Part shown: in pieces, positions 6,807 through 16,140 of the stretch
How positions within the stretch are numbered: position 1 is the first letter of the stretch
How the letters are laid out: every line of letters starts with the position of its first letter
Program-made: the position numbers and the translations under genes
The notes under the pieces: model-generated
The model's database searches: none
The model's input: only the letters and a program-made list of their open reading frames with translations
What the model was told of the DNA's origin: nothing
Assembly: GCA_963745075.1 (NCBI GenBank)
Contig: CAVUWV010000024.1
Span: forward strand, 192,001-256,000
Origin: Candidatus Hydrogenedentota bacterium
GTDB lineage: Bacteria; Hydrogenedentota; Hydrogenedentia; Hydrogenedentales; SLHB01
Direction of reading: 5' to 3'
Length of the DNA stretch: 64,000 nt

Positions 6807-9212
6807 TCAGGGCTCCCGAACCAGTTCCTCTTTCGTGTTGTTTTCCACGGTAACTGCGTATCCGGCGGGGGCATCCAGCCGGTAGTGGATGCCGTCCCCG
6901 GCTTTCCACCAGTGCATGGTGGCTGCCCCGTCCGGCAGGGGCCGGCGACCCTCGCACCACGCCAACGGGACTTCCGACAAGCGTAGCGTAATCGTCTTGT
7001 TCACGGGATCCACTGCGTAGACGCCCAGCACATCGCGGTAGAGTGTATGAACGATGTGCGACGCGAATCCGTGGTCGCAGCTCGCTGCCTCCGTGTCGTT
7101 TTCCCAGAGCGTACCGGTCCGTTCCGCCATGTAGAGCAGATAATCGATGGATTCCGGCAGAATTTCGGCGCCCTTGCCGTACCGAGACAACACCTCGAAG
7201 CGGAGCATGTTCCCCATAAAGGAGTTGGCGAAATGGACCTCTGGGTAGGCCTTCGTCTGTTTCCGACCCGGGCCGAACTGCGTGCAGAGCTTGTTCCAAA
7301 GGTCGGGATACGTCTCTGGCGTCGCCACGTCGAAGAAGAACGCATAGTACTGGCAGATCTCGCTGCGGTTGCGCGTGACTTCAAGTTTGCCGTCCGTCCG
7401 AACGGCATTGTCGACGAAGAATTCGCCGTCGTACGATTGATCCCGAATCACTTGCCGCAAGCGTTCCGACTCCGCTCGTAATTCAGGCATGTCGTATAAG
7501 CCGCCTACGGTATCCAACACCGCTGCGTACAACATGTTGGTGGGATAGTTCACGTCCTGCACGAACTTGTTCGCCTCCGACCATTCCACGAACACCCAAC
7601 TGTCCAGCTTCTCCAGCAGGCCGTCACCGTTCCGGTACGGCTCGAAATATTTCAATAGCGCCAATACCCGCGGTTTCAGCGCATCAATCATTGTCCGATC
7701 GTTGGTGCGGTCGAGATACTCGTTCAGCTGAATCACAAACCACATCGCCCAATTCGGAATATAGACCCCATCATTGTGATCCGCCGGATAACACATGGGA
7801 AGCATGCCTTTCGGCAAGTACTCAAAGTCGTCGGGCAGCATGAAGTTCTCGAAGAAGTTCTTCTCGACAACGGTGGTTCCACACAGGTCATAGGCCGTGC
7901 GCGCTGTGAACAGGCTATCCCCCAACCACCCCGCCCGTTCGCGAGACGGACAATCCATGAAGATATCGACGGCGTTTTGCACGAAGGTCTCGCGCCCAGC
8001 TTCGAAGAGGATGTTGAGCCGGTCGTCGCTCGCGGCAAAGTGTGCGCCCCAGGTGTCCGGATTCACGTATTCCCGCATATGGACATTCGACACCGTGCAC
8101 GCCCCGTCGAGCGCCATCAGCTTCACGTACTGCGCGGTATACGGCTCAAAGGACTCCAGGTTATACGTTCCCGGCTTCAATTCGTACAGGACGCAATTGA
8201 CGCAGCCAAGCCGCTTGAAGTCCACGTCGCCGTTCGAAAGGATTTCGTCAAACGTCATGTAGAACCGGGTTGGTTTCGTGCACTCCACGGTGGCTCCCAG
8301 GAATCCGGACCGGTTCGTGCCCAGACTAAAGATTCGATAGCTCCCCGGATCGATCGTCGCTTTGGTCTCTGGCCCGTAGACAATCCGTTCATGATCGGTT
8401 TCGTGCGAACGCATCTGCTGCAGTTCCGTTGACAGCACCATATCGAGTTCGTTTTCGGGGTACCCCTTGAGCTTGGGTCCGATATTGACCAGCGATCGAT
8501 CCTTCCACAGGTGTTCCGGTGCGACTCCGGTTTCCACCGTTCCCTCGGCCACTTGGAGTTGCGGCGGGAATTGGGTGTACGCGGGATACGAAACCCGGCG
8601 GGGGAGGAGCGGGTGGTCTGGCTGTACGGCACACGCCACCTGCGGATCGGGCGTTGCCCCGCCGGTCCGCCATGCATCCCAATCCGGACCGAGTCGATAG
8701 ACTTCAATGAATGGTCGCTGAAAACTGTACCGTTGAACCTTTTGCACGCGCTCCGTGATTACGTGGGCCTCGAAGTCTTTGCCGTCGGCGCCCGTCGCCG
8801 CCAGTACGTCGTCTCCGCGCAAAATCTCCGCGCGAACGAAGGCCGGCTGATCCAGCAGGTAATAGCTGTTCGCGTTGTAACCGGCCACTTCGATTGCAAC
8901 GTCATTGGCCCCGGCTTTCGTGAGGCTCGTGATATCCAATTCATCGACCCGGAAATAGGCGGGACACGCACGGGCCGGTCCGTGACACAGGAACTCCCCA
9001 TTCACAAACACGCGGTACAACGTCGAACCGGTGACCCGGAGCGTCACGCGTGTATCCGGTTCGCCGTCAAACGAAGCGTGGAACCCCACAAACAGATTCT
9101 TCTCCGTCTCACGATCCTTCGGCCAGATGGGGCGCGCGGCAGTGAAATGCGGTGTAACATCCGCCGATAGCGCCATAAGCGCGCTCGCGAGAACAGGAAC
9201 AATAAGACTCAT
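6807..9212 (-). CDS. Secreted GH78-like alpha-L-rhamnosidase family protein
   Basis: Signal peptide; DCPSRERAGWLGD and GTLWEN..SCDHG motifs of GH78-type barrels. Confidence 0.75.
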   Translation of the reverse strand: MSLIVPVLASALMALSADVTPHFTAARPIWPKDRETEKNLFVGFHASFDGEPDTRVTLRVTGSTLYRVFVNGEFLCHGPARACPAYFRVDELDITSLTKAGANDVAIEVAGYNANSYYLLDQPAFVRAEILRGDDVLAATGADGKDFEAHVITERVQKVQRYSFQRPFIEVYRLGPDWDAWRTGGATPDPQVACAVQPDHPLLPRRVSYPAYTQFPPQLQVAEGTVETGVAPEHLWKDRSLVNIGPKLKGYPENELDMVLSTELQQMRSHETDHERIVYGPETKATIDPGSYRIFSLGTNRSGFLGATVECTKPTRFYMTFDEILSNGDVDFKRLGCVNCVLYELKPGTYNLESFEPYTAQYVKLMALDGACTVSNVHMREYVNPDTWGAHFAASDDRLNILFEAGRETFVQNAVDIFMDCPSRERAGWLGDSLFTARTAYDLCGTTVVEKNFFENFMLPDDFEYLPKGMLPMCYPADHNDGVYIPNWAMWFVIQLNEYLDRTNDRTMIDALKPRVLALLKYFEPYRNGDGLLEKLDSWVFVEWSEANKFVQDVNYPTNMLYAAVLDTVGGLYDMPELRAESERLRQVIRDQSYDGEFFVDNAVRTDGKLEVTRNRSEICQYYAFFFDVATPETYPDLWNKLCTQFGPGRKQTKAYPEVHFANSFMGNMLRFEVLSRYGKGAEILPESIDYLLYMAERTGTLWENDTEAASCDHGFASHIVHTLYRDVLGVYAVDPVNKTITLRLSEVPLAWCEGRRPLPDGAATMHWWKAGDGIHYRLDAPAGYAVTVENNTKEELVREP

Positions 9213-9408
9213 GACAGTTCTCCTTCCCGGTCAATATAGAATTCAGCCCTTTGGAAATCTTGCCACAGCGGTCCGTCCGAACAATGTCGGCGCCTGCGAT
9301 TTGCGTGGTCTCGCCCTGCTGAGCAAATAAATGCGCAGACTGTATTCTTCTCAACATGGCACGTTGATACCCATCTCTCTTGGGGGCCAGGTCAAACGCG
9401 CCGAATCG

Positions 9409-11742
9409 TTACTCCTCGATGATGAAGCCGTGGTAGACCCCCATGTAGTAAGGCAGCAAGAATGAAGCGCCGTCGGACAAGTTGGTTCCGTTCCCGCCGT
9501 AATCGAGAGTCCACGGATCATGGTTCCAATGGTCCACAATGCGTTCGTCGATGGGAAGCACCCTCCCGCTCACACGATAGCCTCTCTTATCCCGGCCCAT
9601 GCTCCACTGAAGCGGAACGATGTCCAGACGGTGGCTGTTCTTCATTTCCCAGGCGATCAGGTCCAGCGGATAACGCTTCAGCGAATCGAGCGCCTCCTCA
9701 AAACACGACGTAGGCGCAGAAAAGGACCCTATCCGATAACCGCCGATCGAGGAAGTCGCGCCACTCAGGCTTGCCGCATAGATGTAGTTGAAAAGGGGGC
9801 ACAATTCCGGACTCTCCAGTCTCCAATAGCTGCTCAAGGAGTATGTATAGACTGTCCGGAGTACGGGGTCCGTCTCATACTTGAGCAGGTCGTAGTAGTC
9901 CATAAAGGCCATCTCGTCGTCAGATTGGTTGCCCGTGCCGGGGCCGGTCTGCATTTTGGGCATGAGCGTGTTTACTGCGTATCCGTGTTCCGTTACGAGC
10001 GAATCATAAGCCGCCCCAAACTTCGGATCGCCGGTAATGTGCTGAGCCGTCTTGAGGTAGGACAGAATACTCAGCGAATTGAGGCCGCGTGCACCGGCCC
10101 ATCGCGGGTCAAAGTTCAGGTCTTTCGGGCTGTAGCGGGCCCAGCGCGTGGGCTTGCCATCGTGGTCTACCAACTGGAAATCGTGGTCTACGAGATGGTC
10201 GGTGATGCGTTGAACGACTTCGCGGACACGCTCCTTCTCCTGCTCGGTTTCTGCCACCAAGTCATAGTAGGTCGCGTAGAAGAAGTAATGGCCGTCCAGT
10301 TCGTCCGAGCTGGTGTCGGACTTCCAGTACCATTGTCCATCCTCGCTGACCGGCCAGCGGGGGTCGATGACCTTCCACTGGGGATCGCGCTTTTGGGTCT
10401 CGCGATCTCGTTCTATTCGCCCTTCATTCGGGTCGGGACCGCTGGTCGGAAGGATGGTGCGGGCCGGAAACCCGGGAGGCGCGGGGTGGGTGCCGCCTTG
10501 AGTCACTTCGCTCAAAAAGGACACCGCTTCGAGAGCCTTGGTGGCCCGTCCCTTGGCTGCTGGGTCACCCGTGGCCGCGTAGGCAAAGCATTCCGAGGCA
10601 CCATACATACTGGTCCACAGACCGTCGTTGTCGCTGTCGTGTTTCTTGACGTTGGCTTTCACGCCGGGTTCCGGCAAGTTTACATCGAGAACATAGCCGA
10701 ACGGCGTGCGACGATGATACTTGTCAATCTCTTTCACGAAGAACTCCGCCTTGTCGCGCAGGGTGATAGGCCTCCGTTCAATCAGCCCCACACCGCTGGG
10801 CGTGGCAAACCAGGCGTTACCGTCTGGCGTGACCGCGATGGCACGAACTAAATCACTCGGAAGCCAGCGCTTTCCCTGGCGGTATTCCCAAGTCTCACCG
10901 TCGTAGCGGATTGCACCCAAGTCTGTGCCGAGCCAGACCACGCTTTCTTCGCCGGGAACAGCCACGGTGAACTGGTTGTAAGGGAGCCCTTCCTGGCCCG
11001 TGTAGAGGGTCCACTCGTGGTCCCGGCATCCCACACCCTGCGAACTCGCAAACCATAGGCGCCCTTGAATGTCGTAGGCCACACCGCGCACGTCGACGGG
11101 CGCCCAACTACGGCCCGCGCCATCCCGCGGGTGTATGGCTTCCCAGGAACCATTCATACGGACGAACAGTCCGGAGAGCGCCGCCACAGCGACCTCTCCG
11201 TCGAGTCCGGCGGCCACCTGACGCACTTCTTTGCTCGAGCCCAGCAAGCCATTGAGCGCCTCCACAGGGCGAAAGTCGGTTCCAGCCAACTCGAAAAGCC
11301 CTTGTCCCGTGCCCAAGTACGCCGTTTCGCCTTTCGCCAGACTAGTCAATTCTGAACTCTGAGGAACAGGCGAGATCCGTTTCGCATCGCCTTCAACCAC
11401 CCGATACAGAGCGTCGCCGGCAATAGCCAAGACGCCTGACACTTCCGGCGCGAGGGCAGATACCCGAGTGCCGGCCAACACGGAAAGACTCGACCACTGC
11501 CCTTCCTTGAAGCGAGCCAGCCCCTCGGCGGTGCCGGCGTAGATACTGCCGTCGGGCGCCACGGCCACAGCCAAGACGTCTTCGGACGGCAACCCGTCCT
11601 GGATGGTGTAAAACGTACGAACTTCCTGTTCGTACGTTGACACGCGAATGCCCTTCTCGTGACGTAGAGGTTCGGCGTAGCAGGTGAATCCGAACAGTAC
11701 GGCGCAGCTAGCAATCACGAACACAAACAGCGGTCGTTTCAT
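9409..11742 (-). CDS. Secreted protein with two-component-regulator-type beta-propeller repeats and a C-terminal helical barrel-like domain
   Basis: Signal peptide; GLPS..V.A.A...DG..Y/W.GT repeats; GGAGGGAG RBS before ATG 11742. Confidence 0.7.
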   Translation of the reverse strand: MKRPLFVFVIASCAVLFGFTCYAEPLRHEKGIRVSTYEQEVRTFYTIQDGLPSEDVLAVAVAPDGSIYAGTAEGLARFKEGQWSSLSVLAGTRVSALAPEVSGVLAIAGDALYRVVEGDAKRISPVPQSSELTSLAKGETAYLGTGQGLFELAGTDFRPVEALNGLLGSSKEVRQVAAGLDGEVAVAALSGLFVRMNGSWEAIHPRDGAGRSWAPVDVRGVAYDIQGRLWFASSQGVGCRDHEWTLYTGQEGLPYNQFTVAVPGEESVVWLGTDLGAIRYDGETWEYRQGKRWLPSDLVRAIAVTPDGNAWFATPSGVGLIERRPITLRDKAEFFVKEIDKYHRRTPFGYVLDVNLPEPGVKANVKKHDSDNDGLWTSMYGASECFAYAATGDPAAKGRATKALEAVSFLSEVTQGGTHPAPPGFPARTILPTSGPDPNEGRIERDRETQKRDPQWKVIDPRWPVSEDGQWYWKSDTSSDELDGHYFFYATYYDLVAETEQEKERVREVVQRITDHLVDHDFQLVDHDGKPTRWARYSPKDLNFDPRWAGARGLNSLSILSYLKTAQHITGDPKFGAAYDSLVTEHGYAVNTLMPKMQTGPGTGNQSDDEMAFMDYYDLLKYETDPVLRTVYTYSLSSYWRLESPELCPLFNYIYAASLSGATSSIGGYRIGSFSAPTSCFEEALDSLKRYPLDLIAWEMKNSHRLDIVPLQWSMGRDKRGYRVSGRVLPIDERIVDHWNHDPWTLDYGGNGTNLSDGASFLLPYYMGVYHGFIIEE

Positions 11743-12183
11743 AAGAACTCCCTCCATCGTTCCATCCCAGGGCGATTCAGAGACAAAGGTGCCGCGCACA
11801 AGCGTTTCTACACCACCGAATTGGTCCTGGCAAGTCCCCCTATTGCTGTCTTGCCTCGAAGCTGTTGGAGTCTCCGCTTCGAGGGTGTTTCCGGTCGGCT
11901 CAAAAGCCTGGTCATGTTGGCAACCCCTTTTCGAGCCACCTGGATTCTAGCGCAAACGTGAACCGCAACCCAGAAATGAAACCTGCGATATGTATTTCGT
12001 CACAGATGCCAATGTCGGCAATCGCCCCAAGAGCGACGCAAAACTAAACGTCCCGTTCCACGGTCGCTGCCGGCTGGTAGTGGCGGTCATCTTGGGGTGT
12101 TATACTGAAGTCTCTCGGGCTGAAGGCATTATGGAAAGTGATCGTGTGTGCGCGGTCAATCCAATTGGCAAGGATCTGTCAAT

Positions 12184-12628
12184 ATGAAAACCGAAACAAT
12201 TCGCGTTGGACAAGTCGGTATCAAGTTTCTGCTCGAAGCTGCCGGGACGAATGGATCCATGGCGATGTTCGAATTCGCCGTCCCAGTGGGCGCGAAGGTG
12301 CCGCTACCCCATTATCACAAGGAATACGACGAGACCATCTACGGAGTTGAGGGCGTGGTAACATTCACCGTGGATGACAAGCTGGTGGACATCGGCCCGG
12401 GAGAATCTTGTTTTATTCCGCGTGGCGCCGTGCATGGTTTTAACAACCGGAAGCAAACCGACGTTCAGGGCGTTGGCCATCGTTACTCCTGGGCTTATCG
12501 GTCCCCAGTTCTTCAAGGAGATGGCAGTGCTGATAAATGTGGAAGGGCCCCCGGATGGTGAAAAGTTGAAAGCCGTGATGCTGAAACACGGGCTTGTTCC
12601 CGTGATGCCGAAAACGGCTTCCCTATGA
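12184..12628 (+). CDS. Cupin-domain protein (frameshift near 12465)
   Basis: PHYH..DE..Y.VEG and IPRGAVHGF motifs; C-terminus ALAIVTPG..FF..HGL is in another frame. Confidence 0.8.
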
Positions 12629-13010
12629 ATTCCCCACGCGGGGTGACCAGCGCGTTGCGTTGTGTGTGCTTAGGGTGAGCTGCTGGGACGGAACATCGGG
12701 GAGACTCGCACCATGTTCGATTTCATCTTTGCCATACTCGCGTGGATCGTACGGATCATTTACTTCACCGGACGTCTCTTGACTGCCAACGATTTCAATC
12801 AGGAGCAAGATTACAATCCGTAATCGAGAGTTCGGTGACACGGATGCCGTCTCCACTGCGGGCGATTTACGCGGACAGCAAGCTGGATTCCCGCCCCTTA
12901 TACGCATCCATCTAACAATGCGCAGTTTTAACGACTACCGTGGCGCGACTTGATTGTCTTCTCCAATTGAATCTATCGTGCATGAAACGGTCGAACGGCT
13001 CGGTGAGTCT

Positions 13011-14702
13011 AAACCCAGCGCGGCATAGCCGCAACCAAAAGTGAGGAGATGAATGGCGTTTCCCCTTTGCAGATACAATAGGTATCCGCAGTGGTCTAAC
13101 ACGAGAAGGAGAAACGCCATGCTTGAGTTTATGCAGAAGTACCGGGATAAAGCCAGTTCGATTCTGAGCGGTTTTGATCGAATCGTCTTTCGAGGGCTTT
13201 TGCGGTCTATAGTCCATCCAGACGGCATGAAAAGGCACTTGTCGCGGTGTGACGTTCCCCGCCGCAACTTCGGAGCCCATGTGGAGGAGACGACCAAGAA
13301 ACTGAAAAAGGCCTCGTTGGCTCAGGCTGAACATCTGGATAGACCGGTCATCTACGTGCAATCGAGTCAAACCCGTAAGGAGACTATCGCCAGACAGGTA
13401 CTCGCGGAGAATCCCGTCGATTCCGGTTTGCTGTGCGTGCTTTCTTGTGTGGAGCCCTGCATGACCTACGAGATGTATCGCAATCGGGAGGCCAAGAAAC
13501 TGGAACTCGTCTATCGTCTGCGTAAGTGTCTCCACTTGTATCATTACTACGTCGATCCTCTGTTCGGCTTCATGCATGCCCGCATCCAAACCTGGTATCC
13601 CTTTCACGTCCAAGTCTGTGTGAATGGACGGGAATGGCTGGCTCGGCGAATGGATGCCGAAGGTTGCAAATACATCCGCTACGAGAACAGTTTCCCGCAT
13701 CTAGAGGACCCGGAGCGCGCCCAGCAATTGCTCGATGAACTGGTCCGTCTCAACTGGACCGAAACCCTTCACGAAATCGCCGCGCGGTTGAATCCTGCGC
13801 ATCAAGAGATCCTCGGTCCCTATGCCCGCTACTACTGGACCGCTCACCAAACCGAATGGGCCACGGACATCACGTTTACCTCGGCCCAAGACCTCCAAGA
13901 TATCTATCCTCAACTTGTCTGGGGCGCCATCACCACCTTTTCCACACGGCATGTCATGCGCTTTTTGGGCAAACAATTCCAACGCCACTTTGCCGGCGAA
14001 GTCCAGAGCCATTATCACGACCGTCTCGACGGCCTCTCCGTCAAACATGCCGTCAACAACAATTCCGTCAAGATGTATGACAAAGGGGCCCAAATCCTTC
14101 GCATCGAAACCACCATCAACAACCCCCACGACATCCCGGTCTACCGGCCCAAGGAAGGCGGTGACCCCAAAGACTTGGCTCACCGTTCCATGCGCAAAGG
14201 CGTAGCCAATCTCGAACGGCGCACGCAGGTCTCTCAACGCGCCAACGAACGCTACCTCGAAGCCCTGACACCATTCGATACCTCCACTCCCTTGGCACAA
14301 CTCCTCGCCCCCGTCACCAAAAGGGTCACCAAAAAAGGAACGACCTATCGCGGCCTGCGGCCTTGGGCACACCAAGACCTCGAACTTCTGCAAACCATCA
14401 ACAAACCCGAGTTTCTCATCGCAGGCTTCCGCAACAAGGACCTGTCCGCCATCCTTTATCCCAAGGATCAGGGCGACCTCCGTGCCCGACGCGCCGCCTC
14501 CGGTCGCGTCTCCTATCGCCTACGGCTTCTCCGAGCCCACGGTCTTATTGCCAAAACATCACGCACCCGTCGCTACCAAATCACCACCAAAGGAACTCAA
14601 CTATGCGCAGCCATACTCATGGCCCAACACGCAACTATCCAACAACTTACCCCCAAGGCCGCTTAGACAAATGCGAAAGTTTTTTACGATGTTTGCGGTT
14701 AG
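13011..14702 (+). mobile_element. Putative single-ORF non-DDE insertion element (boundaries approximate)
   Basis: Orphan 1.5-kb ORF between unrelated genes; GCGGC-ATA-GCCGC hairpin at left; structured leader; C/A-rich strand bias. Confidence 0.45.
13119..14666 (+). CDS. 515-aa protein with Rep_trans-like nuclease motif and C-terminal MarR-like winged helix; putative transposase/relaxase
   Basis: AGGAG RBS before ATG 13119; SVKMYDKG..LRIETTIN; wHTH-like GFRNKDL..VSYRLRLLRAHGLI.K..RTRRYQITTKG. Confidence 0.6.
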   Translation: MLEFMQKYRDKASSILSGFDRIVFRGLLRSIVHPDGMKRHLSRCDVPRRNFGAHVEETTKKLKKASLAQAEHLDRPVIYVQSSQTRKETIARQVLAENPVDSGLLCVLSCVEPCMTYEMYRNREAKKLELVYRLRKCLHLYHYYVDPLFGFMHARIQTWYPFHVQVCVNGREWLARRMDAEGCKYIRYENSFPHLEDPERAQQLLDELVRLNWTETLHEIAARLNPAHQEILGPYARYYWTAHQTEWATDITFTSAQDLQDIYPQLVWGAITTFSTRHVMRFLGKQFQRHFAGEVQSHYHDRLDGLSVKHAVNNNSVKMYDKGAQILRIETTINNPHDIPVYRPKEGGDPKDLAHRSMRKGVANLERRTQVSQRANERYLEALTPFDTSTPLAQLLAPVTKRVTKKGTTYRGLRPWAHQDLELLQTINKPEFLIAGFRNKDLSAILYPKDQGDLRARRAASGRVSYRLRLLRAHGLIAKTSRTRRYQITTKGTQLCAAILMAQHATIQQLTPKAA

Positions 14703-14772
14703 GGACCCAGGGGATGTTGTCAGGCATTCCCGTCCCATTCCACACTGAGATGATAACGGAGTACAAAAAGAT

Positions 14773-16140
14773 ATGAATCTTGTTGTGGCCGTCGGGTTCC
14801 TCGCTTTGGCGGCGACCGAACCACAGAGCTTCACCCTTCACGCAGGCACCAGCGTGTGGGACGTGGCGGCGCTCGACGTAAACGGGGATGAACGTGGAGA
14901 CGTCGTTGCCGTGTGTTGCGACGAGAATTCGGAGCCGTTGAACAAGTATCTTGCCGTCTTTCTCTGCGATGCGAATGGGGGATACCCTTCCGAACCCAGT
15001 TTCAAAACCCCACTCGATCCGAGCATCGGCGTGTTGTTCGAGGCCGAAATCGACGGGGCGCCTCCCAAGGAAATCATGGCCGCCAACGCCGAAAGCGTCA
15101 CCGCGTTCGGCTACCGGGACGACAAACTGAAACCCATTCGCGAGGTATCGTTTCCTTCGCTCTTCCCGAGCGGCTCCCGTGAACCGGGTTTTCTCAAGGA
15201 TGCTTCCGCTGACCTCGACGGTGACGGCATCGACGAGTGGTTTGTGCCGATGCCGTCGGGATTCGCAGTCCGCAATAGCGACGGGCTCCTTGCGGACATA
15301 CACTGCGACGTCAACAGCAGCATTCGCACGGGCTCCGGGATCTCGATCAACAACCGGTATCCCGCCTACGCTACGTTCGATCAGGAAAGCTCGAAACAAA
15401 AAGGCGTCGCTTTTCTCAGCGATGAATATGCGGATTTCGCATACGGAAACGGCTGGAAGCAGCACCAGCGATTCCGCATTCCCATCGACCTCGACGACAA
15501 ATGGGACACCAGCTCCGACATGGAGGACATCAACGGCGACGGAATGCCCGACCTCATCGTGACCCAGACGCAGGGGACCATCAACCTGAAGGCGTTGACC
15601 CAGGTCTATCTGGCGGAAGGAATCATGAAGTATCCCGACAAGCCGACCGCGACCTTCGAGTCCCACGGCTCGTTCGCCGCGCCTCTGTTGAAGGACGTGA
15701 ACGGGGACAAGAAGAAGGACATCATCTTCGTAAACATCCCGTTCGGCGTGAAGTTCTTCATCAACCTCTTCGTCTGGCAGAAGCTCGGCGTCAATCTTGA
15801 AATCTACATCTTCAATGGCACCGGGTTCGGCTCCAAGCCCGATTTTACGACCAGCGTATCGATCGAAGCGCCGGATGGAAAAGAGCAGGCCGCGTATTGT
15901 CTTGGCGATTTCAACGGCGATGGCAAAACCGACGCCGCCTTTGGCGCGGGCCGGACCAAGCTGCTCTTGCGTGCGGGGGGCGACGCGAAGTTCATCTCGC
16001 CAAAGCCGTACTTGACCCTGGATGTGCCGTCGTTTGGGATCGCCCACGCCCACAAACTGAACGACAACGACGCGGAAGACATTCTCATCTATCACCCCGG
16101 GATCTCGCTACGTGACCAAATCGAAGTCCTGGTCTTCTGA
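14773..16140 (+). CDS. Secreted FG-GAP/VCBS repeat protein
   Basis: Repeated D(V/L/I/F)(N/D)GD.. Ca-binding motifs; signal peptide. Confidence 0.85.
   Translation: MNLVVAVGFLALAATEPQSFTLHAGTSVWDVAALDVNGDERGDVVAVCCDENSEPLNKYLAVFLCDANGGYPSEPSFKTPLDPSIGVLFEAEIDGAPPKEIMAANAESVTAFGYRDDKLKPIREVSFPSLFPSGSREPGFLKDASADLDGDGIDEWFVPMPSGFAVRNSDGLLADIHCDVNSSIRTGSGISINNRYPAYATFDQESSKQKGVAFLSDEYADFAYGNGWKQHQRFRIPIDLDDKWDTSSDMEDINGDGMPDLIVTQTQGTINLKALTQVYLAEGIMKYPDKPTATFESHGSFAAPLLKDVNGDKKKDIIFVNIPFGVKFFINLFVWQKLGVNLEIYIFNGTGFGSKPDFTTSVSIEAPDGKEQAAYCLGDFNGDGKTDAAFGAGRTKLLLRAGGDAKFISPKPYLTLDVPSFGIAHAHKLNDNDAEDILIYHPGISLRDQIEVLVF

Follow-up and report, generated by a model that had tools for sequence, protein, structure and literature searches.

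A multicopy insertion sequence family with a predicted Rep_trans-like transposase and asymmetric ends

In the 64,000-nucleotide stretch of Candidatus Hydrogenedentota DNA analysed here (the window), one basic open reading frame stands between a cupin gene and an FG-GAP-repeat gene. The first-pass annotation took it for the gene of a candidate mobile element encoding a Rep_trans-like nuclease fused to a winged helix. This raises the question of whether the locus is mobile, where it ends and what kind of enzyme could move it.

Copies and boundaries of the element

We found that the genome holds six copies in total. The other five match window positions 13014-14712 at 99.94% with sharp ends, and the outer flanks of the six are unrelated to one another; one copy, on C14, carries a nonsense change. 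These common ends in different flanks bear out the proposed mobility, and single-copy conservation, named beforehand as counter-evidence, was not seen. The element is a real insertion sequence that was active recently, a point we regard as virtually certain. Its GC content is 54.9%, compared with 58.4% for the window. Its boundary features are as follows.

13015..14706, forward: the complete insertion sequence of 1692 bp (family homology sets the crossover point inside the CCCAG repeat)
13014, forward: host C directly preceding the cut, at target -1 (all 46 paired family loci have C here)
13015..13018, forward: CCAG tetranucleotide at the left end, a target-like NYAR belonging to the element (CTGG when read on the bottom strand)
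14699..14706, forward: right terminus TTAGGGAC (family form TTAGTAGT)
14707..14712, forward: host target CCAGGG (empty site C|CCAGGG, the bar marking the cut)

In the family, the left end reads C|NYAR-C-GCGG-hairpin-AACC and the right end TTAGTAGT|NYAR; regular expressions located the left end in 59 of 80 loci and the right end in 58 of 80, many of the others being truncated by contig ends. Homology with these ends was used to choose 13015-14706 for the window copy, about 4 nt rightward of the ends first drawn, its crossover being ambiguous over 5 bp. A direct repeat of 5 bp, CCCAG, lies at 13014-13018 and 14706-14710 and had been overlooked. We rejected it as a target duplication because the left and target 4-mers are equal in only 13 of 46 two-ended loci and differ in the other 33. 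As first reported, no terminal inverted repeats were seen.

The empty site reads CCCAGGG for all six copies. In G041 there is an empty paralog that agrees exactly with locus L023 on both flanks, and the cut falls after the C. At L015, excision at C|AC restores a His found in 3/3 homologous repeats, whereas the rival cut yields Pro. An empty-site count with 15-mers, underpowered at 30 loci, gave two cases for the C|NYAR cut, none for the rival cut and 28 ties. The paired loci, the paralog and L015 together show that insertion occurs at C|NYAR without target duplication. Many relatives (L011, L012, L033, L042, L050, L052, L318-L324) insert into short tandem repeats of the CACAGAG or CACGGA type, where C|ACAG or C|ACGG is available as a site. 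L057 and L058 form a lineage whose ends are atypical and lie inside a TCCGGAAAACC...GGTTTTCCGG palindromic repeat.

The check for extra copies and empty sites thus yielded five further copies; an exact empty site of the window copy was not found, as three same-genus genomes are without the entire 9.2-14.8 kb block (5.6 kb). That block (~9200-14800), which holds a 796-aa propeller gene, the cupin gene and the insertion sequence, is missing between the rhamnosidase and FG-GAP genes in the three genomes, which makes it a small lineage-specific island. The cupin gene (window 12148-12628, forward) is split over two frames; a contig of run X1 is one base shorter at 12464, so either a recent frameshift or an error of assembly explains the split. 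In a 97%-identical relative, 26 of 38 listed coding differences fall at third codon positions by our own count. Another identical repeat occurs six times in the genome (C32:138594, C26:74058, C18:120011, C15:206938, C13:171601 and C8:64233) and is probably a different multicopy element.

Five of the six copies sit at the foot of a REP hairpin, the window copy being the sole exception, and 16 empty close copies of that hairpin exist in the genome. With ~30 broad REP hairpins versus 901 CCCAGGG sites, five of six in REPs is far above chance (about 1e-5 by simple arithmetic); selection against insertions in genes contributes to this excess. Elsewhere in the genome, three loci have Y1_Tnp genes flanked by such REPs, a situation that would suit a reading in which the element is cargo of a host REP-associated Y1 transposase (RAYT) and its gene a passenger. 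We consider this highly improbable, as the sixth copy and most copies in Thermoguttaceae and in genome G282 lie outside REPs, several interrupt genes, and the end motifs track the gene down to 29% protein identity.

We also found at least four non-autonomous elements of 161-384 bp with both ends in the same genome, and further ones in the same genus and in genomes G041, G042 and G044. Mini-elements of the own genome (G000) are located as follows.

C10:322219-322560: mini-element, both ends
C13:59242-59670: mini-element, both ends
C14:268635-268874: mini-element, both ends
C28:144329-144489: mini-element, both ends

The cargo of these mini-elements consists of REP hairpins and a AAATCCGAAGCACG-type repeat, and two of them directly precede another left end. 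The transposition system may shuffle other repeat families.

The predicted transposase and its family

The 515-aa basic frame and its C-terminal winged helix were confirmed, together with the following features.

13119..14666, forward: putative transposase gene, 515 aa, pI 9.7 (open reading frame; close homologues)
13119..14282, forward: TBP-fold / Rep_trans-like catalytic domain, residues 1-388, with D20 (13176), E246 (13854), Y320 (14076) and E330 (14106)
14286..14663, forward: MarR-type winged helix, residues 390-515 (fold search, Z about 9)
13053..13121, forward: leader RNA hairpin, arms 13053-13067 and 13106-13121
13074-13079, forward: -10-like TACAAT inside the leader stem, a weak signal

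The longest frame opens at 13053 (537 aa). We set the start at the 13119 ATG because close homologues are 514-516 aa long and the conserved leader ends there. That leader is predicted from its sequence to fold into a hairpin that sequesters the ribosome-binding site and the start codon: of 60 distinct leaders that passed a loose filter on the bases preceding the start codon, 59 have a ribosome-binding region that folds back, versus 35% of shuffles, and the outer pairs show two-sided changes in 6 of 7. The -10-like motif is weakly enriched in the stem (22 of 41, versus 12.6 expected). By general knowledge of insertion sequences, the hairpin likely blocks translation of read-through transcripts.

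Two structure models of the protein were confident (pLDDT 93.5 and 93.0). In the fold search, residues 1-388 matched TBP (Z 8.1), RepDE (4cwc; Z 7.0, rmsd 4.5, 174 aligned) and RepSTK1 (4cij; Z 6.8, rmsd 4.8, 190 aligned). These scores are middling; TBP and Rep_trans are equal or almost equal, and a partial match to phosphoglucomutase ranks among them. Foldseek against the PDB was weak, with 4cij at E 5.7e-3 and rank 16, below unrelated rows; against BFVD it returned the inovirus Rep A0A345MNV4 (E 7e-4) and A0A2N9QVX7. The available text of PMC13107129 reports both as BFVD matches for the Rep_trans-related RepSNJ2 and calls A0A345MNV4 Rep_trans. Absence of structural similarity to Rep_trans, the other counter-evidence named beforehand, was therefore not seen.

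The residues point the same way. D20 (124/124), E246 (131/131), Y320 (132/132) and R328 (132/132) are invariant and K322 (125/132) and E330 (131/132) nearly so. D20, E246, Y320, R328 and E330 were all placed in strands, Y320 in strand 315-322 and E330 in strand 326-333. KMYDK and LRIETT, picked out in the first reading, were located at 318-322 and 327-332. Thus D20, QTE246WATD, Y320DK and LRIE330 follow the Rep_trans motif order of D, RxD, YxK and RxE, in which a strand carries the Tyr (PMC5714925, available text), and the VIA range starts at 13 versus 39, consistent with D20 corresponding to D46 if ungapped. When aligned by hhalign with 17 Rep_trans-like proteins, themselves weak to passing PF02486 matches, QTEWATD fell on RxDxxxD and KMYDK on IYDK at a probability of 5% and E 0.008; a cropped hhalign test was no better than shuffled columns.

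Neither Pfam nor NCBIfam has a family that matches the transposase, and PF02486 was matched neither by it, nor by 89 representatives, nor genome-wide. None of the HUH families in Pfam or NCBIfam matched, and the invariant columns are without a conserved HxH pair; a genome scan with PF01797 did not match the six copies. Among 90 proteins none matched PF25227 (DUF7845) at E 0.001, assuming that the Pfam set includes it, as it does PF25213 and PF25607. PDB sequence searches gave nothing significant, the ESM Atlas unnamed clusters only, PHROGs winged-helix matches only, and Rfam no match. A divergent family of 426-aa Rep_trans-like proteins was seen at L371 (G815:C21), with 18 relatives mostly under the Pfam cut-off.

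We call the protein Rep_trans-like and not a PF02486 member, because fold and ordered residues agree and sequence homology is not significant; to this extent the proposed nuclease identity stands. On the models, the enzyme is very probably one that uses Rep_trans-like tyrosine chemistry. Alternatively, the TBP-like fold might be convergent or repurposed, in a double-strand site-specific recombinase with crossover in a short shared core or in an enzyme of non-tyrosine chemistry. TBP scores as well as Rep_trans, sequence homology is not significant, and Y141, Y143, E112 and D250 are further near-invariant residues. Yet the D..E..YxK..RxE order is that of the Rep_trans motif list (PMC5714925, available text), and tetranucleotides that differ in 33 of 46 loci need no shared core, so we judge this reading quite improbable.

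The family is large. Of 7,998 candidates scored, 7,824 matched it, and it comprises at least 5,903 representatives clustered at 50% identity (E 0.001). Among GTDB stretches, 443 of 515 were confirmed as family members, in many phyla. In its own phylum 29 of 135 genomes match, and in four other groups 2-4 of 151 genomes do so at E 1e-100, centre genomes included; the nearest named relative is from Hydrogenedentota. A Pfam scan of 89 representatives let none pass the cut-off, five giving weak winged-helix matches. Thirteen plasmid records match the family, and among 68 stretches of viral contigs there was one partial match. A Paraburkholderia plasmid member, at 29% identity with both end motifs present, is labelled 'ArsR family transcriptional regulator' in RefSeq, which is a mislabelling; down to this identity the end motifs accompany the gene. 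Paraburkholderia phytofirmans OLGA172 is non-pathogenic and can be cultured, and it offers a source of the element family. A search of the openly accessible literature found no description of the family or of a Rep_trans-fold transposase.

End structures and the proposed route of transposition

The ends of the element differ from each other, and three further features bear on the direction in which it would move.

13020..13040, forward: left-end hairpin GCGGC-ATA-GCCGC (13020-13032) followed by AACCAAAA (13033-13040)
14667..14693, forward: imperfect right-end dyad, at a fixed distance of -40 to -14 from the cut, degenerate in its own lineage
14702-14703, forward: candidate two-base guide GG, right-end bases -5/-4

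The hairpin, first noted near 13019, and the short tail TTTGCGGTTAG, found exactly at 14692-14702, were thus as described. Among 121 distinct left ends, two-sided changes maintain the stem while loops vary from 2 to >20 nt, so we regard the stem as a conserved structure. As a pT181-type nick site the hairpin was rejected: the junction is 5 nt away on its outer side, the loop is free to vary, and the earlier suggestion of a rolling-circle nick origin there fell with this. The left hairpin is likely a single-strand termination signal, a role that fits the hairpin near the 3' end that terminates Helitron transposition (PMC4778049, available text), and the left-end CCAG is by analogy with IS91 geometry (PMC13181058, available text) a likely terminator cut site. 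At the right end, the dyad reaches 64% Watson-Crick pairs at one centre versus at most 36% at others (34 family ends). It is likely a double-strand binding site. Rep_trans proteins bind inverted repeats just downstream of the nick (PMC9371924, available text), and since such sites lie downstream of nic the dyad, which is 3' of the cut when read on the bottom strand, would fit one there.

The reading that we prefer, with a probability of roughly 55%, is a rolling-circle-type single-strand transposition with its origin at the right end, in which the predicted enzyme is a tyrosine nickase with the Rep_trans (TBP) fold and not an HUH protein. The winged helix would bind the right-end dyad as double-stranded DNA, and Y320 would nick the bottom strand at the right junction and join its 5' end, with D20, E246 and E330 holding a metal. 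Host replication would displace the bottom strand toward the left end, where the left hairpin would fold on the displaced strand and lead to a second cut after the element's own tetranucleotide. The strand, perhaps circular, would then be joined to a target, often at the foot of a palindrome, chosen partly by pairing of -5/-4 with +2/+1.

The polarity could also be reversed, with the left end as a top-strand origin and the right end as the terminator. Read on the top strand, the left hairpin too follows the cut closely on its 3' side, and the own genome has a slight excess of solo left ends over right ones (about 12 versus 8). In genome G042, loci L281, L289 and L287 carry tandem 128-bp units, each starting with a left end, so that three to four left ends precede a single right end; such arrays fit opposite polarity or nesting. 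Against this, mismatches in the inner left stem of the 121 ends are biased to the bottom strand (eight top A.C, that is bottom-strand G.T, versus one top G.T), although outer and loop-closing mismatches favour the top strand (four top G.T versus none). A hairpin with a variable loop suits a single-stranded signal, and the dyad lies at the right end. Furthermore, a 51-nt repeat at L063 ends exactly at a right end and starts at an internal GCAG; this single case resembles, and so suggests, a product of early termination. We therefore consider the reversed polarity improbable. Several copies in G042 have common left flanks, and as read-through these were rejected, the copies being nested in mini-elements; with nesting as the explanation, read-through capture of flanking DNA is a putative feature only.

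The same Rep_trans-like tyrosine enzyme might instead act in an IS200/IS605-like peel-and-paste manner, cutting single-stranded fork DNA at both ends, excising a circle and resealing the donor without rolling-circle synthesis. The end geometry of IS608, with a target tetranucleotide outside one end and its own inside the other (PMC3201880, available text), also fits, as do the guide-like pairing and the many two-ended mini-elements. However, the right-end dyad pairs poorly (64%, at fixed spacing) and resembles a double-stranded site more than a single-stranded hairpin, and the protein carries a winged helix that binds double-stranded DNA. In two single-contig genomes with seven copies each (G039 and G282), the strand of the copies changes four times on one round of the chromosome. 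Wherever the origin is placed, this is incompatible with a strict replichore bias, and it mildly disfavours this route; in the element's own genome the skew was too noisy for such a reading. We consider it unlikely.

Both routes leave room for a circular form. The search for circle junctions found no circle or empty-site joints in contigs from eight of 19 sequencing runs, where contigs prove presence and not absence. Among 120 metagenome junction loci none looked circular; 33 pass a loose left-end test, a few of these by chance, and 29 of the 33 are without the gene in the available DNA. Right-left junctions are not proof of circles, because insertion before a resident left end also makes them. 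L073, L172 and L175 show a head-to-tail layout, in which a right-left junction has transposase sequence to either side.

Pairing between the right end and the target bears on target choice. With junction-pattern loci excluded, position -4 of the right end is the complement of target +1 in 35 of the 45 end clusters. In a set of 47 clusters, to which nine hand-registered ends from distant lineages were added and from which 3 of 94 rows off register were dropped, -5:+2 and -4:+1 are both complementary in 36. The guide-target pairs are GT-AC (24), GC-GC (5), AG-CT (4) and GG-CC (3); complementarity holds for 12 of 14 non-GT guides and, over all guides, for 81 of 100 sites. None of 5000 shuffles reached the observed complementarity, in a statistic that ignores kinship; related loci are not independent. 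A GC guide arises several times on the tree, with one reversion, the target changing along; these switches were read on a quick tree with 55 automatic end labels, about 11 of them corrected by eye. An exception is the TAGTAGA|TCAG lineage, where 4-5 clusters have T:T, and the left tetranucleotide does not follow the rule. On these alignments, bases -5/-4 likely help to select the target by pairing with +2/+1, an IS608-like hint.

Comparison with known systems

Within the available text of the papers cited here, rolling-circle initiators have two unrelated folds, HUH and Rep_trans, and transposases are described only for HUH (IS91, IS200/605, Helitron and RAYT). The present element family would supply the missing Rep_trans-fold case, and it escapes Pfam and NCBIfam despite at least 5,903 clusters and its spread over many phyla. 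We tentatively propose, at a little under even odds, a new prokaryotic transposase class: a very large unannotated insertion sequence family that combines a Rep_trans/TBP fold with IS91-like rolling-circle ends and IS608-like DNA-guided targeting. If this is true, target choice could be reprogrammed by changing two right-end bases, and mini-elements would also transport and rearrange interspersed repeats, REPs among them. The element itself would be a scar-free inserter of 1.7 kb with a single gene, whose target may be programmed by base pairing.

DDE insertion sequences are set apart by their terminal inverted repeats and target-site duplication, both absent here. IS110/IS1111 elements encode a DEDD recombinase, and one of their non-coding ends is long (bridge RNA), whereas the present protein has no Pfam match, and its non-coding ends are just 104 and 40 nt long and have no Rfam match.

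As in Helitrons (PMC4778049, available text), the bottom strand ends in a hairpin and then, in many lineages, a CTRR-like 4-mer (CTAG, CTGG). The element is prokaryotic and without HUH or helicase, and its hairpin abuts the end, in contrast to the position about 11 nt upstream given in that text. IS200/IS605 elements, as represented by IS608 (PMC3201880, available text), likewise have asymmetric ends and a target tetranucleotide outside one end, and the candidate guide pairing adds to the likeness. Their enzyme is a small Y1 HUH protein, whereas here it is a 515-aa TBP-fold protein with no tnpB; compared with IS608, the guide is 2 nt adjoining the cut, and no strict replication-strand bias was seen.

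IS91 comes closest in the layout of its ends, by the available text of PMC13181058 and PMC5714925: there are no inverted repeats and no duplication, a tetranucleotide target lies beside the gene-downstream end, and the element's own tetranucleotide adjoins a palindrome at the other end (the last from PMC13181058). The IS91 enzyme is of the HUH (Y2) type, whereas the present protein has a different fold without an HUH family match, and the element needs C at -1.

The Rep_trans/MOBT proteins (PF02486; RepDE 4cwc, RepSTK1 4cij, RelSt3) share the TBP-like fold, a strand-borne YxK Tyr followed by RxE, the order of the acidic triad, a helix-turn-helix DNA-binding module and an inverted-repeat binding site near the cut. 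The element's protein differs in having no Pfam match, a catalytic domain longer by about 200 residues, E for D in motif I and a Tyr-to-Glu spacing of 10 versus 23. Rep_trans nicks CT'AA in the loop of a GC-rich hairpin (PMC9371924, available text), whereas the element's cut lies outside a hairpin with a variable loop. Rep_trans/MOBT proteins act on a plasmid, phage or ICE, whereas the element is a chromosomal insertion sequence. Rep-Arvir/RepSNJ2 (DUF7845, PF25227), as described in the available text of PMC13107129, likewise join a Rep_trans-like domain to a MarR-type winged helix; their best BFVD matches are the same, and an inverted repeat with the cut site again lies just downstream of the gene. 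They belong to archaeal viral or plasmid replicons and carry KHYYM, whereas the element is a bacterial multicopy insertion sequence with YDK.
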